Positions 4,858-60,260 are shown, numbered from the stretch's first letter. The stretch is 64,000 nt of DNA from a candidate division WOR-3 bacterium (GCA_039801905.1 JBDRVQ010000002.1:3147-67146); one strand, 5' to 3'. The notes: a model not told the origin generated them from the sequence alone. Translations and numbers: made by a program.

Positions 4858-6205
4858 AACGAGCTCCTATTTCCTTTAAAGCGGAAACGAAGAAATCCAA
4901 CTCCTCTTTTGTCCTTTTTTCCGTAACCGCAACCAACAGAAGGTCTTCCCAATCCTCATTAAATCTTCCCAGATGGACACCTCCGAAAATCTTTTTCTCC
5001 CTTAAATCTTTAAGAATTTTGGGCCAGATTCCTTTTTTCCCTTTCAGGACAAATTCTTTGAAAAAGGGAAGGGGAAATGCCCGGCGGAAATTGGTCTCTT
5101 CTTCAATCCTTTCTAAGAGATAATGGGCTTTATGGAGACATTGACTCGCCACCTCTCTTAAACCCCTTTTCCCCAAAAGGGAGAGATAGATGGTCGCGGC
5201 TAAGGCGCAGAGCGCAGAATTGGTGCAGATATTGGAAGTTGCCCTTTCTCTCTTTATGTGTTGTTCTCTCGTCTGTAAGGTTAAGACATAACCCGGGTTG
5301 CCATCTCGGTCAATTGTCTTCCCAACCAACCTGCCAGGCATAAAACGAATGAACTCCTTCTTCGTGGTAAAAAGGCCGAGGTAAGGACCACCAAAAGAGG
5401 GAGGGATTCCTAAGGATTGCCCTTCCCCAACCGCAATGTCTGCTCCGTAATCACCCGGTGGTAAAATGATACCTAAAGAGATTGGGTCGCAAGAAAGAAG
5501 GAAGAGACAATCGTTTTTATGAATAATTGTTGCCATTTCTTTTACCGGTTCTAAAATGCCGAAGAAATTGGGATTTTGGACGACCACCGCCGAGAAGGAA
5601 GGGTCAACTATTTTCTCCAAAATATCTAACTCAATCCGGCCCTTGGGAGTTGGTAAATAAACTGGTTCAATTTCGGTTCCTTCTAAGTAGGTCTCAATCA
5701 CCATTTTATAAAGGGGATTGAGGGAATCAGCCAAAAGAATCTTCTTTTTCTTCTTAATCGCCACCGCCATCAGACAACCTTCGGCTAAGGCACTCGCCCC
5801 ATCGTACATTGAGGCATTGGCAATCTCCATATTGAAAAGTTCACAAATTAAAGATTGGAACTCAAAGATAGTTTGTAAAGTCCCCTGAGAGACTTCCGCC
5901 TGGTATGGGGTGTAGGCGGTATAATACTCGCTCCGCTGTAAGATATGGGGGATGACTGCGGGGATGATGTGGTCATAGACCCCACCGCCTAAAAAGTTAA
6001 TGAACTCATCAGTTGTCTCATTCTTCTCGCCAATCGCTTTTACCAATTTTCTCACCTCAAACTCGGAAAGAGACGGAGGGAGAGGGAGGTCCCCTTTCAA
6101 TAAAATTTTCTCTGGGATTTGGGAAAAGAGTTCAGAAAGAGAGGAGACGCCAATCCGGGCAAGCATCTCTCTCTTCTCCTCTTCGGTATGGGGGGTATAT
6201 TTCAT
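4847..6205 (-). CDS. gcvPA: Glycine dehydrogenase (decarboxylating) subunit 1
   Basis: 452 aa with GcvPA-type sequence ([16 protein letters not shown]..). 4-nt overlap with gcvH. Confidence 0.9.
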
Positions 6206-6600
6206 ACTTCTCCAATGTGCTTCTTATAATCTTCGGCTTTGAGAAGATTTTTCAATTCTTCTTTATTCTTAATTCTAATTTTAATAATCCAACCTCTACC
6301 ATAAGGCTCCTGATTAATAATTCCGGGGTCATTTTTTATTAAATCATTCACTTGGATTATTTCTCCGGAAACGGGTAGATACAAATCAGAAACCGTCTTC
6401 ACCGCTTCAATTGTCCCAAACCTCTCCCCTTGGTTTAACTCTTTTCCCATCTCCGTAATGTCCACATAAACGATATCGGAAAGTTCTTTCTGGGCAAAGT
6501 CAGTAATCCCGCAAAGGGCGGTGTTATCCTCTATTTTCACCCATTCGTGGGTTTTGGTATAAAATAAATCATCAGGGACCAAACTCATAATTCCTCCCAA
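6202..6600 (-). CDS. gcvH: Glycine cleavage system H protein (lipoyl carrier)
   Basis: 132 aa; TKTHEWVKIEDN..EAVKTVSDL carries the lipoyl-lysine motif. Confidence 0.9.
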   Translation of the reverse strand: MGGIMSLVPDDLFYTKTHEWVKIEDNTALCGITDFAQKELSDIVYVDITEMGKELNQGERFGTIEAVKTVSDLYLPVSGEIIQVNDLIKNDPGIINQEPYGRGWIIKIRIKNKEELKNLLKAEDYKKHIGEV

Positions 6601-7959: not shown

Positions 7960-8234
7960 ATCCAGATTAGGCTCCCATTTTTACTTAGGATTAAAGCCTT
8001 AGTTAAACACAGGATTAAACTCTTTATTATCCCTTCTATTAAACTCTGAATTAGACTTCCAATTATGCCCTCTTTTAGAGTATCTATTAAATCCTCAATT
8101 AAACCCTTTATTAAATCTCCGATTAAGTCTAAAATTATACCTTTTCTTAGACCTTATATTATGCCTTTCATTAAATCCCTGATACCATCCCCTGTATGCT
8201 ACACCCCTTTTTATAAAAATAAACCCCTCCTGTT
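7960..8234 (-). repeat. Composite intergenic element, copy 1: ~50-bp conserved core (8181-8234) plus ~220-bp array of ~12-bp-phased YTAAT(T) repeats (7963-8180)
   Basis: Core GATACCATCCCCTGTATGCTACACCCCTTTTTATAAAAATAAACCCCTCCTGTT on plus is the reverse complement of the core seen at 24419-24471 and 56503-56553, and is identical in orientation to 41098-41152. The array has TAAT/ATTAA motifs every 11-13 bp. Confidence 0.85.
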
Positions 8235-8359: not shown

Positions 8360-8470
8360 TTTAACTTCTTCATAGCCCTCTATAATAAATACGGAAATAC
8401 CCCCCAATTTCTGACACTAAATTTCCCCCCTTTTTTATAAGTCTTTGATTTATAATAACTTATTTACTTT
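8360..8470. repeat. Second conserved intergenic module shared with 41215-41330
   Basis: CATAGCCCTCTATAATAAATACGGAAATACCCCCCAATTTCTGACAC is shared between the two loci. Flanking TACCCGATAA and CTTTGATTT..AACTTATTT also match. Confidence 0.7.
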
Positions 8471-8611: not shown

Positions 8612-8639
8612 TTGACAAAAAGTTAATGGTTTATATAAT
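8612..8639 (+). promoter_or_regulatory. Candidate promoter TTGACA-16-TATAAT upstream of the GH18 gene
   Basis: tTTGACAaaaagttaatggtttaTATAATt, 31 nt before the ATG at 8670. Confidence 0.45.
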
Positions 8640-13874: not shown

Positions 13875-14648
13875 ATGATTGAAATTGGTTGTTGCGGCTT
13901 TCCGGTAAGCCGAGCGCTATACTACAAGACTTTTAATTGTTGCGAAATCCAAGTTACTTTCTACACATTTCCCAATCTCTCCCTTTTGGAAAGATGGCGC
14001 CGGGAAGCCCCACCCGGTTTTTCCTTCATCTTAAAAGCATCCCAATTGCTCACCCATCCCCCTTCTTCTCCCACCTACAAACGCTTCCAACCCTCTTCTT
14101 TTCCCTTTCCCCTTAACGAAAAAAATTTAGGTTTCTTCCGTTTAACCAAAGAGACTAAAGCCGCCTGGGAGGAGACAAGAAAGAGGGCAGAAGTCCTAAA
14201 GGCAGAGATGATTATCTTTCAAACCCCACCCTCCTTCTCCGAAGAAGGAGAAAATGTCAAAAATATCTATTCCTTCTTCTCCAAAATTGACCGGGGAGAT
14301 TTAACCTTAGTCTGGGAAGCGAGAGGAAAGTGGCAGGATAAAACCTTAAAGAAAATCTCTCGGGAATTGAAATTGATTTTAGCCTTTGACCCAATGGTGA
14401 AACTGCCCATTTCTGGTCTCTTTCAAAAAAGAGGCAAAAACCCTTGTGCCTTTTATTTCCGTCTCCACGGCGGAAAAGGCTACCGTCATAAATTTTCTAA
14501 GGAAGAGTTAGAAAGAATTGCCCAGGAGGCAATTTCCCGAAAGAACGGTTATATTATGTTTAATAACATTACAATGTTTGAAGACGCAAAAAGAATGAAG
14601 AAGATAATGGAGGAACTCTCTAATGAATTACGAGAAAATAAAAGATGA
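13875..14648 (+). CDS. DUF72 (YecE-like) family protein
   Basis: [26 protein letters not shown] matches the DUF72 N-terminal pattern. Confidence 0.5.
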
Positions 14649-15534
14649 GATTTTACGATTAAAGAGAGAGAAGGGGGCGGTCATTTTAGTTCACAATTAC
14701 CAAAGACCCGAAATCTACGAAGTCGCTGACTTTATCGGTGATTCCCTTGACCTTTCTCTGCGGGCAAAGGAGACCGAAGCGAAAATTATCATCTTCTGCG
14801 GTGTCCACTTTATGGCGGAGACCGCTAAAATTCTAAATCCCCAAAAGATTGTTCTGATGCCCGATATTAATGCTGGTTGTCCGATGGCGGATATGGTGAG
14901 TAAGGAAGCACTTTTAAGAAAAAAGGAGGAGATTGGGGATTGTCTTATTGTCTCTTATATTAATACCACTGCGGAGGTGAAGGCGGAATCGGATATCATT
15001 TGCACCTCCGCCAACTGCGTGAAAGTCGTTCAATCCCTCCCGGTGGAAAAAAAGATTCTTTTTGTCCCAGATAAAAACTTAGCCCTTTATGTTGCCCAGG
15101 AGACCGGAAGGGAAAATATCATCCCCTGGGAAGGTTTCTGTTATGTTCATGCCCTTTGGTTTGAGCCCGAAGATGTAGACAATGCCCGAGTGAGATACCC
15201 AGAAGCAAAAATTCTTTGCCATCCGGAATGTCGACTTGAGGTCTTAAAAAAGGCGGATTATGTCGCCTCCACCAGCGGTATGGTTCGTCTCAGTAAGGAA
15301 TTGCCGGAAGTCGTCTTAGGAACCGAAGTCGGTTTAGTAAACCGAATAAAAAGGGAATACCCGGGGAAAAAGTGCTACCCCTTGAAGGAAAGTGCCATCT
15401 GTGCCAATATGAAAAAGACAACCTTGGAGAAGGTTCTTATTTCTCTAACCGAGATGAAATATCCGATTGAGGTGGCGGAAGAAGTTCGGTTCAGAGCGCA
15501 AAAAGCCTTAGAGCGGATGTTTGCTGTGCGATGA
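14623..15534 (+). CDS. nadA: Quinolinate synthase
   Basis: [41 protein letters not shown]. Confidence 0.9.
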
Positions 15535-17171
15535 AGATTGCTCTGGCTCAGATCAATCTCACCGTTGGTGATTTTATAAATAACCAGGAAAAGATTTTAG
15601 CCAGGATCAATTCGGCAAAGAAAGAGAGATGTGAGATTATCGTCTTTCCGGAATTAGCAACCACTGGTTACCCACCCCAAGACCTCCTTTTCCGAGAAGA
15701 CTTCATCACCGCCAATTGGCAACTCGCCCAAAGGATTATTAAAGAGAGTAAAGGGATCGGTATCGTTTTCGGGTGTGTGGAATGGGAGAAGAGAAAGTTC
15801 TCTCATCCGGATAGATCATTCTCTCCCTTCTTCCCAGGTGTCCTTTACAATTCTGCCCTCTTTGCCTACAATCAAAAGATTATCAGCCGGATAAGAAAAA
15901 TCAACCTTCCTTCTTACGACGTCTTTGATGAAAAGCGATATTTCCAACCCGGAAACAAGATAAGGGTATTAAAATTTATCGGGAGAAAAATTGGGATTAA
16001 TATCTGTGAAGATATCTGGGTGGAAAATGGGGTTTTAGAGAAGCAAAAATCTCTCGGTGCGGAGATAATAATTAACATCTCTGCTTCCCCATTTTATATT
16101 GGAAAATACGAAAGAAGAAAAGAGATGTTAAGGGAAAAGGCTAAGAAAAATCAGGTTTATCTTATCTATTGCAATTTGGTTGGTGGCCAGGATGATTTAA
16201 TATTTGATGGGGGCAGTTTTGTCTTTACTCCGGAAGGTAAATTGATTGCCTGCGGCAAGAGGTTTGAAGAAGATTTGGTCATTTTCTCTTTGGAGGAAAA
16301 GGAAAAAGAAGAAAAAGAGTGGCGCGTGGAGGAAGAGGTAGTGGCAGCTCTCGGACTGGGTCTAAAAGATTATTTACAAAAAAACGGTTTTAAGAAGGTC
16401 TGCTTGGGAATCTCCGGTGGTATTGACTCGGCGATTACTGCTGCCTTGGCGGTAAAGGCACTGGGGAGGGAAAGTGTCTTAGGGGTGATTATGCCCGGTC
16501 CTTATACACCAAAGTCCTCCCGTCGGGATGCCGAGTTGGTAGTAAAGAATCTCGGTATCTCTTATTGGGAAATAGATATTAGAGAGATCTATAACTCATA
16601 CTTAAAAACCCTAAAAAGATTCTTAAAGAAAGAAAGGGAAGTTGATACTACCTGGGAAAATATCCAAGCCCGGATCCGAGGAAATATCCTAATGGCAATT
16701 TCCAATAAATTCGGCCACTTAGTCCTCTCCACCGGCAATAAATCGGAAATGGCGGTTGGCTATACCACCCTTTACGGCGATATGGCGGGTGGCTTAGCCA
16801 TCATCGCTGATTTGCCGAAGTCACTAATTTACAAAGTGGCTCATTATCTCAATGAGACCTCAGAAAGAGAAGTAATCCCTAAGAGAATCGTCACCAAACC
16901 CCCTTCTGCGGAATTGAGACCGAATCAAAGGGATGAAGATGACCTTCTCCCCTATTCCCTCCTTGACGAAATCCTTCGTCTCTACATTGAAGAGAATTTC
17001 TCTCCCCCTCAGATTATAAAGAGAGGGTTTAAGAAAGAAGATGTGGAGAGAGTGGTGCGATTAGTGAACAAAAATGAGTACAAGAGAAGACAGGCACCTC
17101 TCCCCTTAAAAATTACTCACAAGGCATTCGGCTTTGGTCGCCGTATGCCTATCACCAATAAATTTATCTAA
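15531..17171 (+). CDS. nadE: Glutamine-dependent NAD+ synthetase (nitrilase domain + NAD synthase domain)
   Basis: N-terminal CN-hydrolase domain ([16 protein letters not shown]) and C-terminal [10 protein letters not shown]-loop. Overlaps the nadA stop. Confidence 0.9.
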
Positions 17172-17219
17172 AGATCTCCCTCCTTTTAGGGAGAAAGAGG
17201 TTGCGCAATGCCCGGATTT

Positions 17220-18326
17220 TTAACTCTTATAGCGCCGGGTTCCGTATTCAATCAGGTCGCGGAGTGCCTTCGGGTCCGAAGAGTTAGCGAGAGCGGTTTC
17301 ATAGTTAATCTTTCCCATCTTGTATAATTCCGCCAGATAGGCATCAAATGAGATACTACCTTCGGCACTGGAGGTCTGAATCGCCGATGGTAAATGTTCA
17401 ATCTTTTTCTCTCGGATGAGGTTTTTCACCGCGGGGGTTGCCATCATTATCTCAAAAGCGGCAATCCTACCTTTCCCTTCCGCCCGCAAAAGGAGTCTTT
17501 GGGAAAAGACCGCCAAAAGGGAGATAGAAAATTGGATTCTGATCTGGTCGCGAATTTCCGGGGGGAAGATATCAATAAATCTAGTGACGGTTTCCGGAGC
17601 ATTAGTAGTGTGAAGGGTGCCAATTACTAAATGTCCGGATTCCGCAGCCCAGACTGTTGCCTCCGCGGTTGCCAAATCCCGAATCTCGCCGACCAGAATC
17701 ACATTGGGATTAGAACGCAAGCCCTTCATTATCGCCTCGCGGAAGGAGGAGACATCCGTTCCTACTTCCCTCTGGGTAATGATTCCTGCCTTATGGTCGT
17801 GGATGAATTCAATCGGATCTTCAATCGTGAGCACATGTCTCGGTGAATTTAATATGTAGTCAATAAAGGTGGCTTGGGTTGTCGTCTTACCAGAACCAGT
17901 GGGACCAGTTACCAAAATCAGACCGTGGGGCCGATCTAAAAGAAATTTAATCTTCGGAATGAGATGGGGGAGAAAACCAATCTCCTCAAAAGTCATAATC
18001 TTTCTGGGAATGAGACGGAGAGCTAAACCGAAGTATCCCTTTTGTTTATAGATAGCAACCCGAAAACGAGCGATATTTTTATAATTGAAAGCAAAATCGC
18101 CACCGCCGCCATCCTCAATCTGCACCCTGAGATGTTTTGCCTGGCGCGAAACGATGTCCTTAAAACGGGAGGTAATTTCTGGGGTTAACGCAGCAGCGCC
18201 ATCAATTGGATAGAGTTTGCCATCAATTCTTAAAGTTGGTGGCCGCCCCACCGTTAAATGGATATCCGAGGCGTTGACCTCAATACACCGTGCTAAAAGG
18301 GAATCTAAATACTCTTCTTCATTCAT
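17220..18326 (-). CDS. pilT: Type IV pilus twitching-motility ATPase PilT
   Basis: GLILVTGPTGSGKTTT Walker A and PilT-type sequence throughout. Confidence 0.85.
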   Translation of the reverse strand: MNEEEYLDSLLARCIEVNASDIHLTVGRPPTLRIDGKLYPIDGAAALTPEITSRFKDIVSRQAKHLRVQIEDGGGGDFAFNYKNIARFRVAIYKQKGYFGLALRLIPRKIMTFEEIGFLPHLIPKIKFLLDRPHGLILVTGPTGSGKTTTQATFIDYILNSPRHVLTIEDPIEFIHDHKAGIITQREVGTDVSSFREAIMKGLRSNPNVILVGEIRDLATAEATVWAAESGHLVIGTLHTTNAPETVTRFIDIFPPEIRDQIRIQFSISLLAVFSQRLLLRAEGKGRIAAFEIMMATPAVKNLIREKKIEHLPSAIQTSSAEGSISFDAYLAELYKMGKINYETALANSSDPKALRDLIEYGTRRYKS

Positions 18327-18442
18327 AACACACCTATTACCTTATACTTAATAATTAAGTATACCCTACTTTTAATAAAAGTCAAGGAACTTTTCTCATA
18401 CTTAAACTTTCTCATCTCTTTAACATTAATAATAATTTTGAT

Positions 18443-18486
18443 AAAAGTCAATAGTCCATTGACTTTTTCCCGAAACTAAATAAAAT
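18443..18486 (+). promoter_or_regulatory. Perfect 10-bp inverted repeat (AAAAGTCAAT-n5-ATTGACTTTT) overlapping a TTGACT-16-TAAAAT promoter 5 nt before the metK ATG
   Basis: Read directly from the sequence. A third half-site AAAAGTCAAG lies at ~18377. Confidence 0.45.
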
Positions 18487-18491
18487 GGCTT

Positions 18492-22745
<4,254 letters not shown>

Positions 22746-40859: not shown

Positions 40860-41152
40860 AAAGCACTTCGCTTTGCTCCGAGATTTCACTCCCGATTAGA
40901 CTTTTAATTAGTCTTCCAATTAAACCTCTCATTAGGCTCCTCATTACATCCCGGCTTAGACTTCCCTTTATTTCCCCGATTACCCTTTGCTTTACTCCCA
41001 AGGTTAAACTTGGGATTAGGCAAAAGATTAGGCTATTTATTAGACTAATTATTATTCTATCAATTATTCTTCTAATTAGTCCTCAAATTAAACCCCCGAT
41101 ACCATCCCCTGTATGCTACACCCCTTTTTATAAAAATAAAACCCTCCTGTTT
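40860..41152 (-). repeat. Composite intergenic element, copy 3: core 41098-41152 plus ATTAG/ATTAA array 40860-41097
   Basis: The core is identical in orientation and sequence to copy 1. The array has repeats every ~12 bp. Confidence 0.85.
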
Positions 41153-41214: not shown

Positions 41215-41330
41215 TTATTCATATTCATAGCCCTCTATAATAAATACGGAAATACCCCCCAATTTCTGACACCAAATCTTCCCCTTTTCTCTAACCCTTT
41301 GATTTTTAAGAACTTATTTTTGGGATTTCT
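41215..41330. repeat. Second conserved module, copy matching 8360-8470
   Basis: The 47-mer CATAGCCCTCTATAATAAATACGGAAATACCCCCCAATTTCTGACAC is shared between the two loci. Confidence 0.7.
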
Positions 41331-55928: not shown

Positions 55929-56430
55929 GTTAGCCCTTATTTTAAGCCTTTTCTTTCTTCTCACCTATGCCCAATACGAATGCGATTGGAACTTGGTAAG
56001 TTCTGGTGGAACAAGTATGAGCGTCGGAAATCTCTCTGCCCAGGTCTCAGTTTCCCAAACCGCAGTTGGTATTATCCAGAATGCTATCCAGGTGGCCCAG
56101 ATTGGTTTCTGGGTGATTGATACCGCCCTTGTTGGAATTAAGGAAATCTCTTCTCAAAAACTTCCCTTAAAGACGGAACTCTTCCCGATAAGACCAAACC
56201 CATTCTCTAAAAATACCCTAATCTCTTATTCCCTATCAGAAGAAACGAATGTCTCAATTATTATTTACAATACCTGTGGAGAACTGATAAGAAATCTCTC
56301 CTTTCCCAGGGTGAAACCAGGAATATATTCCTTTACCTTCTCCGGAGAGAAACTGGGAAGGGGAGTCTACTTCTTAAACTTCTCAGCAGGAAGATATAAG
56401 GCAGTAAGGAAGATTATCCTTATGAGATAG
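55921..56430 (+). CDS. Small secreted protein with T9SS C-terminal sorting domain, translationally coupled to the repeat protein
   Basis: Signal peptide; C-terminal ..IRPNPFSKNTLISYSL..GVYFLNFSAGRYKAVRKIILMR. Overlaps the upstream stop by 8 nt. Confidence 0.55.
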   Translation: MNKLALILSLFFLLTYAQYECDWNLVSSGGTSMSVGNLSAQVSVSQTAVGIIQNAIQVAQIGFWVIDTALVGIKEISSQKLPLKTELFPIRPNPFSKNTLISYSLSEETNVSIIIYNTCGELIRNLSFPRVKPGIYSFTFSGEKLGRGVYFLNFSAGRYKAVRKIILMR

Positions 56431-56431
56431 G

Positions 56432-56460
56432 TTGACAAATTATAAGTATTAGTTTATAAT
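56432..56460 (+). promoter_or_regulatory. Consensus sigma70 promoter TTGACA-17-TATAAT, 42 bp upstream of repeat-element core copy 4
   Basis: gTTGACAaattataagtattagttTATAATt. Confidence 0.6.
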
Positions 56461-56502
56461 TAGAGTAAACTAAAAAGCGGATAAGGATTGGTTTCCAAAA
56501 GA

Positions 56503-56790
56503 AGGGAGAGTTTATTTTTATAAAAAGGGGTGTAGCATACAGGGGATGGCATCCGGGGTCTAAATAGGGGTTTAATAAGAAGGATAATAGAAAGTCTAAT
56601 TAAGGGGATAATAGAGACTCTAATAGAAGATATAATATAATGGTTAATAGAGGTGGTAATTGGGTGGTTAATTGGGAGTCTAACCTAAGGTCTAATGATA
56701 ACCCTAATTGGAACAATAACCGAAGGTCTAATTGCGAGACTAATTGAGAAAATAACTGAGGGCTTAATAAAGTTAATCTCCGGATTGACT
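56503..56790 (+). repeat. Composite intergenic element, copy 4: core 56503-56553, TAAT array ~56554-56784, ending at TTGACT (56785-56790) of a TTGACT-16-TAGAAT proximal promoter
   Basis: Core GAAGGGAGAGTTTATTTTTATAAAAAGGGGTGTAGCATACAGGGGATGGCATC. The array has GKYYTAAT units. Confidence 0.85.
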
Positions 56791-56838
56791 TTTTTTAATA
56801 GTTTGATAGAATAAAGGTTAAGAAAAAGAGGAGTTATT

Positions 56839-57030
56839 ATGCCAGTACCAAAGAGAAGACATTCAAAGACACGTGGGCGAAAACGCCGAACCCACTGGAA
56901 ATTAGACCCACCAAACTTAACCAGTTGCCCCCACTGCCATGAACCGAAACTTCCTCATCATATCTGCCCCCATTGTGGTTGGTATGCGGGAAGGGAGGTT
57001 ATGGTCGCAAAGAAAAAAGAAGAGAAGTGA
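56839..57030 (+). CDS. rpmF: 50S ribosomal protein L32
   Basis: [42 protein letters not shown]; SD AAGAGGAG 7 nt upstream. Confidence 0.9.
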
Positions 57031-57052: not shown

Positions 57053-58081
57053 ATGAATCAGGAAGGGGTTGATAAGAAAGTGAAGGTCGCCTTAGATGCG
57101 ATGGGGAGTGACCTTGCCCCAGAACCAGAATTGGCTGGAACACTTCTCGCCTTAGAGGAAGATAAGGATTTAGAAGTAATTTTGGTGGGAAGAGAAGAGA
57201 TCTTAAAAAGATTTCTCCAGAATTATCCAAAAATTAAAATCTATCCCGCGCAAGAAAGAATTATGATGGATGATTCCCCAACCGAGGTCCTCCGGAAAAA
57301 ACCGGATTCCTCTTTAGCCAAAGCAGTTTATCTCTTAAAAACAAAAGCGGTGGATGCCATAGTTAGTGCCGGAAATACTGGTGCTTTAATCGCCTATTCT
57401 TTAACCGTCCTCGGTCGGATCCCAGGAGTTCTAAGACCAGCAGTTGCCATATTAATCCCTCAGGTGAGTGGTTATTCCTTATTGACCGATGTTGGTGCCC
57501 ATCCTGATCCAAAACCAATTCATCTCTACCAATTCGCGAAAATGGCTTCCCTCGTCGCCGCTTATCTCTTCCATAAGCCCAATCCCCGGGTTGGTTTATT
57601 AAATGTCGGCCGGGAAGAGAATAAAGGAAGCGAGTTAATCCAAAATACCTACCAACTGTTAAAAGAATCGGAATTAAACTTCATTGGTAATATTGAAGGT
57701 TGTGATGTTTTTAAGGGACTGGCGGATGTCATCGTCTGCGACGGGTTTGTTGGCAATATCATCCTCAAATTTGGCGAAGGGCTTTTGGAGATTTTAACCA
57801 AGGGGATAAAAGATTATCTCTCTTCGGAGACAAAATACCGGATGCGCCGCTGGCTGGCAAAACCGGTCCTCCAAGAGTTTGTCTCCCGGCTTGATTATGA
57901 AGAACAAGGAGGCGGTTTATTATTGGGGGTTAACGGCGTGGTAGTCATCTCCCATGGTCGCTCCGGACCAAAGGCGATTAAAAACGCCCTCCATACCGCT
58001 TCCCTATTCTATCGCGAGAAGGTGATTGAAAATTTGAGAAACTCCTTCGCCCAAGAGAAATCTTTAACCACCGAAGAATGA
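57053..58081 (+). CDS. plsX: Phosphate acyltransferase PlsX
   Basis: KVALDAMGSDLAPE..VSAGNTGALIA..VGNIILKFGEG. Confidence 0.9.
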   Translation: MNQEGVDKKVKVALDAMGSDLAPEPELAGTLLALEEDKDLEVILVGREEILKRFLQNYPKIKIYPAQERIMMDDSPTEVLRKKPDSSLAKAVYLLKTKAVDAIVSAGNTGALIAYSLTVLGRIPGVLRPAVAILIPQVSGYSLLTDVGAHPDPKPIHLYQFAKMASLVAAYLFHKPNPRVGLLNVGREENKGSELIQNTYQLLKESELNFIGNIEGCDVFKGLADVIVCDGFVGNIILKFGEGLLEILTKGIKDYLSSETKYRMRRWLAKPVLQEFVSRLDYEEQGGGLLLGVNGVVVISHGRSGPKAIKNALHTASLFYREKVIENLRNSFAQEKSLTTEE

Positions 58082-59151
58082 GAAGACTAATCCTCTTTTC
58101 TACTCTTTTCTTCCTATTTTGTCAAAAATCACCCGTGGGCTTTGAGGAGATGGCAAGAGGAAACCTTTCCCACTTCCAAGAAACCCTTAACCCACGCGAT
58201 TCCTTATCTTTTGGTATCTTTTATCCTTGTGGCAATGCCTCCTTTCTCTTTCTGGGGAAAAATGCTAAATATGAGAGTCGGGTTCTCTTCTCTTTTCCCA
58301 TAAACGACTCCGCTCGGGAGAATATCACAAAAATTTCCCTTTGGCTTTATACCCAGGATACCACCCCCTACCAATTTCGGATTTATCCCTTAACTACCCA
58401 GTGGTCGGCGAATGCCACCTGGCGGATGGCGGCTCCGGATATTCAATGGATTCATCCGGGTGGTGATTTTCTCAACCTGCCAATCGCCGAAGGAAGAGTA
58501 GTAAAGGATTCATTTTCCTTAGAGGTCCCCTTAAACCTCTTAGATACCATCCTTTCCACCACTGGTTTCATCCTCATCCCGGAAGAGAACCGAGATTTCA
58601 ATTTTGCCTCATTTAAGAAAACTGCAAAGTTAATTTTTACCTACGGTGATAAAAACCGAACCTTCCTCTCTTCTTTTGCCACTTACATTACTAATTTCTT
58701 AGACACCATTCCTGATTCCTTTATCATTGGCTCCGGCTATGTCTTTCGCACCTACCTCTCTTACCCCTTCTCCTTAGGAAAAGAGAATAAAATTGCCGAA
58801 GGAGAAATCTCCCTTCTCTTAGACCCCGCCTCTTCTTATTTTATCCGCGACACCTTAGAGATTGCTATTTTCCAACTGAAAGAGAACTTTTGGTCCAGAA
58901 GGGAGAAGACGGAGTATTACGAAATCCCAATTGCCCGAAAGACAGTTATCCTGCCCAATGATACCCTCATCCGGATTCCGATAAAAACCCTTTTGGAAAA
59001 CTGGCAAAAGGAACCCGAGAAAAACTTTGGTCTCTATCTCAGCCTCTATCCCCAATACCAATTCCCCTCTTATCTGACAATAAAAAGGGATACCCTCTCT
59101 TTCCGAATTAACTTCACCTATATCCCACCGGTTAAGGACCGGTTCCCATGA
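58078..59151 (+). CDS. Hypothetical secreted protein/lipoprotein; possibly a DNRLRE-like carbohydrate-binding-type domain (uncertain)
   Basis: N-terminal signal with Cys (..LFFLFCQKS). The ..ISLWLYTQDTTPYQFRIYPLTTQWSANATW segment fits an 'L.L.V...Y.V..W.E..VTW' type motif. ATGA overlap with plsX. Confidence 0.35.
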   Translation: MRRLILFSTLFFLFCQKSPVGFEEMARGNLSHFQETLNPRDSLSFGIFYPCGNASFLFLGKNAKYESRVLFSFPINDSARENITKISLWLYTQDTTPYQFRIYPLTTQWSANATWRMAAPDIQWIHPGGDFLNLPIAEGRVVKDSFSLEVPLNLLDTILSTTGFILIPEENRDFNFASFKKTAKLIFTYGDKNRTFLSSFATYITNFLDTIPDSFIIGSGYVFRTYLSYPFSLGKENKIAEGEISLLLDPASSYFIRDTLEIAIFQLKENFWSRREKTEYYEIPIARKTVILPNDTLIRIPIKTLLENWQKEPEKNFGLYLSLYPQYQFPSYLTIKRDTLSFRINFTYIPPVKDRFP

Positions 59152-60260
59152 AGAGAAAATTGCTATTCACTATTCTCCTTTTTGGGAATTGGCTCTTTGG
59201 CCAATCCTTCTTTTCTTCTCGGGGTTTGGGAGAGGAAATCCTCTCTTATGATGCCTACCAATCTTCTATTGGTAAAAGTTATATCTTCTCTTATGAAAAT
59301 CCTTCCTTTCCCCTTAAATTTAATAGCACAGTTACCATCGGTAATATCACCCAGCAGGTCTTTTTTGCCCAAGAAAAAGAAGATAAAAGATTTCTTTATC
59401 ACTTCCAAATTGATTATGTCAAAATCTCCATCCCAACCTTTTACCAGACCAATCTTGGTTTGGGGCTGAGAAGACGCTTCTCTCAAGATTTTGACATCTA
59501 TTCTGAAACTGCTGGTGGTTACTATTGGCATATTATTGGTAAAGGAGGAATAAATTCAGTATCTCTCTCCTTAGGAAAGAGATACAAAGATTTTTTCTCT
59601 CTTGGCTTTTCCTATCAATATCTCTTTGGAGGTAGTGAAGAGGAATGGTCTTTTGAGACCAAAGAGATTTCTCTCACCCAAGAGACCATCTTTGGTCAAT
59701 ATCAAGGCTTCTCTTACCAATTCTCCCTTTTAGGTAGAATTGGTCCTCTCCAATTGGGTAGCGCACTGGAAATCTTTTCGCCAATTAAGTATCTTGGCTA
59801 TCTATCCGTTCCCTCAGAAACTACCGAAAAAAAGATTAGCCTGCCCCTAATTTTTAATTTCGGCAGCGCTTACAATTTTAGCGAATACCGTTCCCTCCTC
59901 TTCGGTCTCAACTTTAAGAACTGGAAAAAGATAAAATTAGATGGTGAAGTAGACCCTAATTTTACCAGTGGTTTTCTCTTCTCTTTGGGATTTAGCGATT
60001 ACTGGCAGGAGAAAATTCCTTTCCGCTTCGGATACAGCGAAAACTTCTGGTATCTTTTAACCAAAGCCGGAAAAAGGATTGGCGAAAGTTCCTTAAACTT
60101 TGGCACCTCAATCAAAATTCCCAAGTTTGGTTTCTTTGACCTCAATTTAGAAACCTTTTACCGCCGGGGTGATGCCTTAAAAGAATTTGGGATTAAAATC
60201 CTTTTCAGCCCCCGATACGACGAAACCTGGAAGAAACGAGAACGACGCTGGGGTTATTAA
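59148..60260 (+). CDS. Hypothetical secreted (possibly outer-membrane beta-barrel) protein
   Basis: Signal peptide MKRKLLFTILLFGNWLFGQ. Alternating amphipathic beta-strand-like segments. C-terminal aromatic residue (..RRWGY). ATGA overlap with the upstream gene. Confidence 0.35.
   Translation: MKRKLLFTILLFGNWLFGQSFFSSRGLGEEILSYDAYQSSIGKSYIFSYENPSFPLKFNSTVTIGNITQQVFFAQEKEDKRFLYHFQIDYVKISIPTFYQTNLGLGLRRRFSQDFDIYSETAGGYYWHIIGKGGINSVSLSLGKRYKDFFSLGFSYQYLFGGSEEEWSFETKEISLTQETIFGQYQGFSYQFSLLGRIGPLQLGSALEIFSPIKYLGYLSVPSETTEKKISLPLIFNFGSAYNFSEYRSLLFGLNFKNWKKIKLDGEVDPNFTSGFLFSLGFSDYWQEKIPFRFGYSENFWYLLTKAGKRIGESSLNFGTSIKIPKFGFFDLNLETFYRRGDALKEFGIKILFSPRYDETWKKRERRWGY

Follow-up and report, generated by a model that had tools for sequence, protein, structure and literature searches.

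A multi-copy element with a conserved core and strictly phased 12-nt units, found upstream of rpmF-plsX and other operons, is a selected repeat family of some candidate division WOR-3 bacteria

The CsrB/RsmZ RNAs carry repeated GGA motifs, mostly in hairpin loops, which bind CsrA, and they have their own promoter and terminator. ToxI RNAs of type III toxin-antitoxin systems are arrays of nearly identical, pseudoknotted units of 34-45 nt, followed by a terminator and the toxin gene, and CRISPR loci alternate near-identical repeats of ~23-50 nt with unique spacers of like length and have cas genes. The pneumococcal BOX, Correia/NEMIS and REP/BIME elements are found in tens of copies per genome, are palindromic or have inverted-repeat ends, and are alike over whole copies. 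Among DNA-level systems, the partition or iteron arrays (parC/ParR, tubC/TubR, parH/ParG and stbDR/StbA) hold 4-12 boxes at ~7-11 bp and lie beside the genes of their cognate binding protein and NTPase at single plasmid or prophage loci. In these arrays binding is known to spread cooperatively from high-affinity sites, the boxes overlap promoters and box and protein co-evolve fast, and centromere-binding proteins recognise boxes of 4-5 bp at ~11-bp spacing that overlap promoters (PMC6009700, PMC3130281). TIGR arrays have ~36-nt units with two alternating repeats (edge and loop) of 8-12 nt bearing UG...CCA, 9-nt spacers and box C/D, and lie beside a Nop-domain Tas gene (PMC12045711); they are transcribed, in some cases with a terminator behind them.

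We analysed a stretch of 64 kb (the window), which PlsX and GcvT homologs assign to candidate division WOR-3. It contains four copies (c1-c4, about one per 16 kb) of an element that belongs to none of these systems by our comparison, its closest RNA model being CsrB/RsmZ and its closest DNA model parC/tubC/parH. The parts of the copy upstream of rpmF (c4), and the other copies in the window, are as follows.

56432-56437 and 56455-56460, plus strand: TTGACA and TATAAT of the putative promoter P1, spacer 17 nt, 12/12 consensus match
56461-56499, plus strand: A-rich variable leader from P1 to the core, its length but not its sequence kept relative to the sister-species copy L005
56500-56509, plus strand: Shine-Dalgarno-like purine box, AGGAGGGG in most copies, at the same position in all five lineages
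56510-56552, plus strand: core, with a U/A-rich tract, G tracts, TACAGGGG and two in-phase special units (CATAC, GCATC)
56553-56768, plus strand: array of 18 units of 12 nt (N8 + TAAT), then one 9-nt step, from unit lists and a position matrix
56769-56797, plus strand: terminator-like hairpin AAAGUUAAUC-UCCG-GAUUGACUUU and U run, fold z -2.4, overlapping the -35 of P2
56785-56812, plus strand: putative promoter P2, TTGACT-16-TAGAAT, the native rpmF promoter, 10/12 match, with TG before the -10
56839-57030, plus strand: rpmF (L32), Pfam Ribosomal_L32p
57053-58081: plsX, downstream of rpmF, Pfam FA_synthesis
7966-8234, minus strand: copy 1 (c1), purine box, core and 18 units, upstream of gcvT-H-P, without consensus P1
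8392-8440, minus strand: 5' block of c1, GTGTCAGAAATTGGGGGGTATTTCCG..., common to c1, c3 and the sister-species copy L141
24350-24722, plus strand: copy 2 (c2), P1 (spacer 16), leader, core and 21 units, pyrimidine-richer
40883-41151, minus strand: copy 3 (c3), purine box, core and 18 units, without consensus P1

The hexamers and positions of P1 (56432-56460) and P2 (56785-56812) had been given in the original prediction, together with a 26-nt leader bearing a strong Shine-Dalgarno sequence, and all of these hold on re-reading: 26 nt separate P2 from the ATG of rpmF (56839), with GAGGAG as the Shine-Dalgarno sequence. P1 lies ~40 nt from the purine box of c4 (box start at 56500), and a core stretch of 33 nt (56517-56549, TTTATAAAAAGGGGTGTAGCATACAGGGGATGG) is identical across all copies of the window type. 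The last two "units" of the array register sit within the core, in phase (CATAC...GTATC). c2 is found upstream of isochorismatase and 2-oxoacid:ferredoxin oxidoreductase genes, and c3 upstream of formiminotransferase-cyclodeaminase. Beyond plsX, two genes (58078-59151 and 59148-60260; 357 and 370 aa) keep their position in all relatives examined, and neither has a Pfam match at E<=0.01.

Chance falls far short of explaining the core or the phased TAAT pattern. When up to 3 mismatches were allowed, a 35-nt core probe matched two sites in the window, and 23 nt of the core, searched exactly, recovered all 4 copies, with 0 matches expected from shuffles in either case; similarly, five TAAT at 12-nt spacing gave 12 matches, all within the four arrays, versus 0 expected. 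The same locus is present in three NCBI MAGs and one Logan assembly, where the element is base-for-base identical. In total, 13 copies were read from five WOR-3 lineages in independent NCBI, Logan, ENA and JGI assemblies, having been found via protein neighbours, via ORFs that gene callers predicted inside arrays, and by one genome scan. Further copies come from sister and related genomes, some at contig ends. A MAG of the window species holds copies L016 and L017; a sister species with 93% PlsX identity to the window species holds L005, L141 and L143; the GCA_037446935.1 lineage has three copies in L009 and L142, with a diverged core; GCA_900174595.1 bears a more degenerate copy (L145) upstream of a V-ATPase operon; and the L010/L011 lineage has one copy, upstream of a cas6/type III-A locus. 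Rfam gave 0 matches over the window at gathering score and 0 matches over 56380-56860 at E<=10. Two scans of core patterns against JGI metagenomes also gave 0 matches, phage and plasmid collections held no match to the element, and in viral contigs the array-only pattern met simple repeats only and the generic core pattern chance matches only.

A 49-nt 5' block (GTGTCAGAAATTGGGGGGTATTTCCGTATTTATTATAGAGGGCTATGAA) is identical at 8392-8440 (minus strand) and 41247-41295 (minus strand) of the window and at 5653-5701 of L141, lying further upstream in c3. It marks a sub-family in which the 5' part is longer and a consensus P1 is missing. A 34-codon ORF (MKKLKEVIKVSYWVLIPTLISEERLRRYYRVINS) begins at the end of this block in c1 and L141 and has no Pfam match.

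With every copy anchored at TACAGGGG, all units fall in register. The consensus over 148 units of 8 independent copies is TGAAGGTCTAAT, in which T9, A10 and A11 are each 95-98% conserved and T12 (78%), G6 (70%) and T7 (59%) are less constrained. Complete copies have 17-21 units, and indels in the arrays are whole 12-nt units only, the phase being otherwise unbroken. Between related copies, positions 9-11 have 2 substitutions apiece and positions 1-8 have 8-12 apiece; TAA was substituted at 6 of 201 sites versus 78 of 536 at the other positions (P = 2e-6). Between c4 and its ortholog L005, the eight variable positions have diverged by 27.8% (40/144), whereas the 4-fold sites of five flanking genes in the same species pair have diverged by 11.7% (62/528; P = 1e-5), and P1 with the leader of c4 (56432-56509) by 10.5%, near the neutral rate. 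These results demonstrate that the anchors and their phase are under purifying selection and that the filler between them evolves faster than neutral, which might be due to conversion among units or among copies, to transcription-linked mutation or to diversifying selection. The element is a real, selected and previously undescribed repeat family of some WOR-3 bacteria.

Divergence is not uniform along a copy pair either. c2 and L017 differ by 0% downstream of the element, by 3% in the array and by 17%, with many gaps, in P1 and the leader, and this mosaic shows recombination at the core. It would agree with a selfish or neutral intergenic repeat, that is, a non-autonomous mobile or recombination-spread module carrying a promoter, in which core and phased motif would serve the module's own propagation as transposase or recombinase sites, not the host. 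The high density of the element (4 copies in 64 kb), its sub-families with common flanks (c1, L141 and L143), the presence of the c1-type copies L141 and L143 in genomic contexts unseen in the window, its absence at orthologous sites in relatives, and contigs that end in or just after arrays (L016, L143 and the third L009 copy) are in line with such a module as well. However, no inverted termini or flanking duplications were found by eye in the copy sequences and the four-copy alignment, no second conserved end was seen, and no transposase is associated with the element, the ORF of the L141 array having no Pfam match. Moreover, the copies are old, with variable positions near saturation, and yet their core is identical, even across sister species at 11.7% neutral divergence, which indicates continuing purifying selection on every copy. 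We consider a selfish or neutral repeat distinctly unlikely.

Two features are shared with known families, phased direct repeats and many intergenic copies, and none of the other defining features compared is clearly present in the element. BOX, Correia/NEMIS and REP/BIME elements resemble it in their intergenic copies, modular build, internal sub-unit, possible promoter and association with assembly breaks, but the WOR-3 element is asymmetric, and only its head and 3-4 nt per unit are conserved while the rest is near saturation. TIGR arrays (TIGR-Tas) likewise combine a short period with variable segments of 8-9 nt between short conserved ones; the WOR-3 element has a single 12-nt unit without box C/D and without alternation, unit similarity showing no lag-2 or lag-3 periodicity. 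A UG...CCA pattern is not visible in the unit lists, and Pfam found no Nop-domain gene in the 54 ORFs of the window or among the neighbours at other loci. In contrast to CRISPR, the period is 12 nt with 3-4 nt conserved per unit; no cas genes are present in the window, and only the L010 copy is near a type III-A locus. ToxI loci have a promoter and then a tandem RNA array with one protein subunit per unit, as the WOR-3 element may have, but no ToxI-type long identical units, pseudoknots, or terminator and toxin gene are seen in the element. Identity with TIGR, CRISPR or ToxI was rejected on these features.

Across three lineage types, TACAGGGG.TG is invariant and the special units of the core shift in step with the type, reading GATAC..GATAT, GCTAC..GCTAT or CATAC..GTATC. 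The L010 core is AGGAGGGGATTTTTCTTTTTGAAGGGGGGAGTGCTACAGGGGGTG, and the L010 array has 19-20 units with pyrimidine-rich filler and CTATT in the TAAT register (C, T, A and T at positions 9-12, then T at position 1 of the next unit). This co-variation of motif and core fits a reader molecule that co-evolves with its motif better than it fits a conserved protein. Array composition changes from purine-rich to pyrimidine-rich in c2 and L010, so that no single RNA property beyond the motif is conserved.

Several narrower ideas were weighed on such comparisons as well. An array of stop codons or mini-ORFs (ATG or GTG after CAGGGG, four codons, TAA every fourth codon) is ruled out by the L010 type, where CTATT takes the place of TAA in the register, and the pyrimidine-rich arrays of c2 and L010 led us to reject an R-loop-forming or purine-loading role. 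There is a resemblance between the window core AUACAGGGGAUGG and the CsrA SELEX consensus, but a CsrA site in the core was dropped, as the L009 and L010 cores read GGGGGUG without GGA. As to a possible G-quadruplex, three G tracts are conserved and the fourth is just GG in c2, L009 and L142. A sigma-54 promoter, -10-like pause elements, DnaA boxes, NusB/E boxA and Rho rut sites all misfit the conserved positions by eye.

Read in the frame NTA-ATN, the array gives (E/K)(G/S)(L/I/V)I, and it could represent a family of genes for small repetitive proteins with 4-residue repeats, in which many copies would be pseudogenes or use non-canonical starts. This frame is open in 3 of the 8 independent arrays, where gene callers predicted proteins (P0121-P0123), and broken TAAT units often still give hydrophobic pairs (CTG ATA, CTT ATT, GTC TTA). 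The 7 in-frame stops are also fewer than the 17.6 expected from within-unit shuffling (P = 0.002), which leaves some room for translation, although the purine-rich middle of the unit explains this deficit as well and the 7 stops agree with a position-specific expectation of ~10. On the other hand, stops interrupt 5 of the 8 arrays, with 1-2 in each of the four window copies, and TAA and TAG lie within the invariant core. There is no start codon at the array head in c2, c3 or c4, and the start in c1 runs into a stop after five codons. Across lineages, no start codon follows the purine box in a conserved frame, and the candidate starts near the second G tract are in frame C in L009 and L142, frame B in L010 and frame A in L145. 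The pN/pS ratio of the open frame (0.65) is no lower than in the other five frames (0.50-1.00), substitutions being flat over positions 1-8. NTA makes up 95% of the codons at its place in the array versus 22.5% of the Leu/Ile/Val codons in 23 window genes; in the same genes CTA is 5% of the Leu codons, whereas the wobble A of the array is 95% fixed. Furthermore, the same frame in L010 reads xx(P/S/A)I, and this change from Leu/Ile/Val to Pro/Ser/Ala speaks against a conserved protein; no Pfam matches were found. These results argue against coding by the array, and a leader peptide or repetitive protein, rejected on starts, stops, pN/pS and codon usage, is very unlikely.

Both P1 and P2 are putative sigma-70 promoters, judged by their hexamers and 16-18-nt spacers. 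The original prediction regarded the exact hexamers and spacing shared by two unrelated loci as unlikely to be due to chance. This argument needs correction: the hexamers are the sigma-70 consensus, matched at 10-12/12 by many gene promoters here (8612-8639, 24330-24303, 40843-40816 and 7738-7711), so that a perfect pair is not unusual and shared hexamers are weak evidence, and the spacer in c2 is 16 nt, not 17. Stronger evidence for a shared layout is the distance from the -10 to TACAGGGG, which is 76-78 nt in six of the seven P1-bearing copies, from two lineages (77 nt in c4). The P1 hexamers are also the same in the L005 ortholog though the spacer has changed, and spacers and leaders diverge among paralogs and orthologs alike; P1 is under selection and is part of the module. 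As predicted, c4 is thus a true member of the module, P1 included, but P2 is outside the layout, and P1 itself, present in 7 of the 13 copies read, is found in the window in c2 and c4 only. A recognisable consensus P1 is missing from c1 and c3, from the c1-type copies L141 and L143, and from L010 and L145.

In three relatives (L007, L009 and L010, with 79%, 76% and 75% PlsX identity), a P2-like promoter (TTGACA...TAGAAT/TAAGAT) lies directly upstream of rpmF with no element there. P2 is thus the native rpmF promoter, upstream of which the lineage of the window species and its sister gained the element, these being the only two species in which it precedes rpmF. Similarly, a relative with 86% GcvT identity has the gcvT promoter and no element. 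The distance from the array to P2 varies (0, 16 and 39 nt, up to ~225 nt) without fixed geometry, no co-oriented gene follows the L141 copy or the first L009 copy, and other copies lie ahead of unrelated operons, V-ATPase and cas6, or of unknown genes. The element is an addition specific to its lineage, and the ribosomal-protein/lipid operon did not have it as an ancestral control region. It had been proposed that the same control element governs this operon and the amino-acid catabolic operons; this is supported in part only, in that a neighbouring module, which may or may not act on them, is common to the four operons. Given a native P2, a variable distance, lineage-specific presence, varied contexts and a P1 in only two of the four window copies, no shared regulon operator is demonstrated. 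Co-regulation of these operons could arise only via read-through from P1, and in c4 a hairpin and U7 stand in the way between P1 and rpmF.

The core folds no better than shuffled sequences (z +1.2 and +1.7), nor does the whole predicted c4 transcript (z +0.95), so that a structured RNA is unlikely, and a riboswitch or other structured RNA was rejected on these core z-scores at or above 0 and the lack of an Rfam match. Hairpins are present at the array ends of c4 (10 bp with a U run, z -2.4) and c2 (17 bp, z -2.6), the former being missed by a strict terminator scan because it has just 2 G-C pairs. The conserved Shine-Dalgarno-like purine box hints at RNA, where alone it would have an obvious meaning, and together with selection on P1, the fixed distance from P1 to the core, the unfixed distance to P2 and the c4 and c2 hairpins it would favour transcription.

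Our preferred explanation, which we hold tentatively and as somewhat short of probable, is that the element yields a transcribed, unstructured, non-coding RNA that serves as a multivalent platform for a co-evolving binding protein. The lineage-specific, multi-copy module of ~400 bp would be transcribed from P1 into a separate RNA of ~335 nt or a long leader. This product would be an unstructured strand: a head made of the purine box and G tracts, then ~19 units of 12 nt in strict phase, with a single short motif in each (UAAU, or CUAUU in a different lineage). A sequence-specific protein would nucleate at the invariant head and bind cooperatively, one subunit per 12 nt, in principle like the protein-sequestering RNAs of the CsrB/RsmZ type. 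These RNAs share with the element, so read, a length of ~330-370 nt, an own promoter, ~18-22 short single-stranded motifs, the possibility of several paralogous copies per genome and the multivalent capture of an RNA-binding protein. In contrast to them, the motif of the WOR-3 element is UAAU or CUAUU instead of GGA, the 12-nt spacing is strict, there are no hairpin loops, an invariant G-tract head precedes an unstructured array, and the L009-type core has no GGA in the CsrA-like stretch; by eye, GGA is found in fewer than half of the units and is absent from the arrays of c2 and the L010 type. We infer that the RNA and not the DNA is active, that its partner is a protein, and that rpmF-plsX would be affected in any way. 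The RNA reading is weakened by the copies without a consensus P1 (c1, c3, L141, L143, L010 and L145) and by terminator-like hairpins being seen in c4, c2 and L010 only, not generally.

A protein binding double-stranded DNA would explain motif, phase and co-variation equally well. The element could be an iteron array at the DNA level, with the core as nucleation site for a DNA-binding protein that would then polymerise over the 12-bp direct repeats. Downstream of P1 it would work as operator or roadblock, or, near operon promoters, as a silencer or insulator of chromatin-like kind, by analogy with parC/ParR, tubC/TubR, parH/ParG and excisionase-type direct-repeat arrays. Degenerate boxes in strict phase, a nucleation-like head, a co-varying motif and a constrained number of units fit cooperative DNA binding, and the centromere-binding proteins are precedents (PMC6009700, PMC3130281). 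Half of the copies have no obvious P1, and three window arrays end 0-39 bp from the downstream -35, both of which agree with a role in DNA. Partition arrays are similar in their phased direct repeats of short degenerate boxes; the WOR-3 element differs from them in its ~19 boxes at 12 bp, its many chromosomal copies and its promoter at a fixed distance. Moreover, no gene for a cognate binding protein, NTPase or Rep protein, nor any par-like or recurrent DNA-binding gene, adjoins any copy, the 12-bp period is off the 10.5-bp helical repeat, and the geometry with respect to P2 varies. Unless P1 is the regulated promoter, a DNA-level array would not explain the Shine-Dalgarno-like box, why P1 is under selection or why it stays at a fixed distance from the core. 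We regard the DNA-level array as a somewhat unlikely alternative to the RNA platform.

A bolder version is that WOR-3 bacteria have an undescribed RNA-protein (or DNA-protein) system with the element as its nucleic-acid half, in which a filament- or ring-forming protein would dock on the G-tract head and read a 4-5-nt motif every 12 nt along ~19 units, the fast-evolving 8-nt segments being copy-specific information, guide-like or decoy-like, not neutral filler; we think this unlikely. Pfam searches of the 54 window ORFs and of the neighbours at other loci found no partner protein recurring beside the copies.

If a multivalent platform is the right reading, the element would point to a new nucleic-acid-binding protein and to a layer of regulation or structure in a hot-spring phylum without cultured members. 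It adjoins central operons, namely those for glycine cleavage, for the catabolism of histidine and of aromatic amino acids, for lipid synthesis and for V-ATPase. The signature of the element (units in strict phase, an anchor of 3-4 nt, faster-than-neutral filler and a motif switch between lineages) offers a clear handle for finding the partner through phyletic and co-variation analysis. For annotation, it should be noted that gene callers make spurious hypothetical proteins from the arrays and that assemblies can break there.

The CTATT-type copy of L010 (13690-13975) lies ~230 bp upstream of the promoter of cas6-HEPN-csm genes of type III-A (14242-20437), with no CRISPR array seen in between; as none of the other copies has cas genes nearby, the adjacency may be a coincidence. 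In a lineage with 71% GcvT identity, two contigs shown of the five that carry gcvT (L146 1-130 and L147 1-126) begin ~125 nt upstream of gcvT, before its promoter, which suggests an assembly-breaking repeat at gcvT there too. About 120 nt upstream of the L145 copy, a stretch at 9720-9670 (minus strand) resembles the T-arm and acceptor 3' end of a tRNA (GGGTTCAATTCCCCGCCCCA); ARAGORN found no tRNA at this position, so it may be a tRNA fragment. The ORF leaving the L141 array (6090-6260), in which Pfam found no match, ends in ...REKLAILVVIGVDSEGKKRLLAIHLIS and by eye looks like a transposase fragment. Upstream of the P1 of L016, a GC-rich segment with inverted repeats (1955-2025, CGTGTCCGCCTCATCCGCCGAAGGCGAGACCTCACCAATTCGTGGCGGGGTGGCGGG) may be a structured RNA or a terminator.
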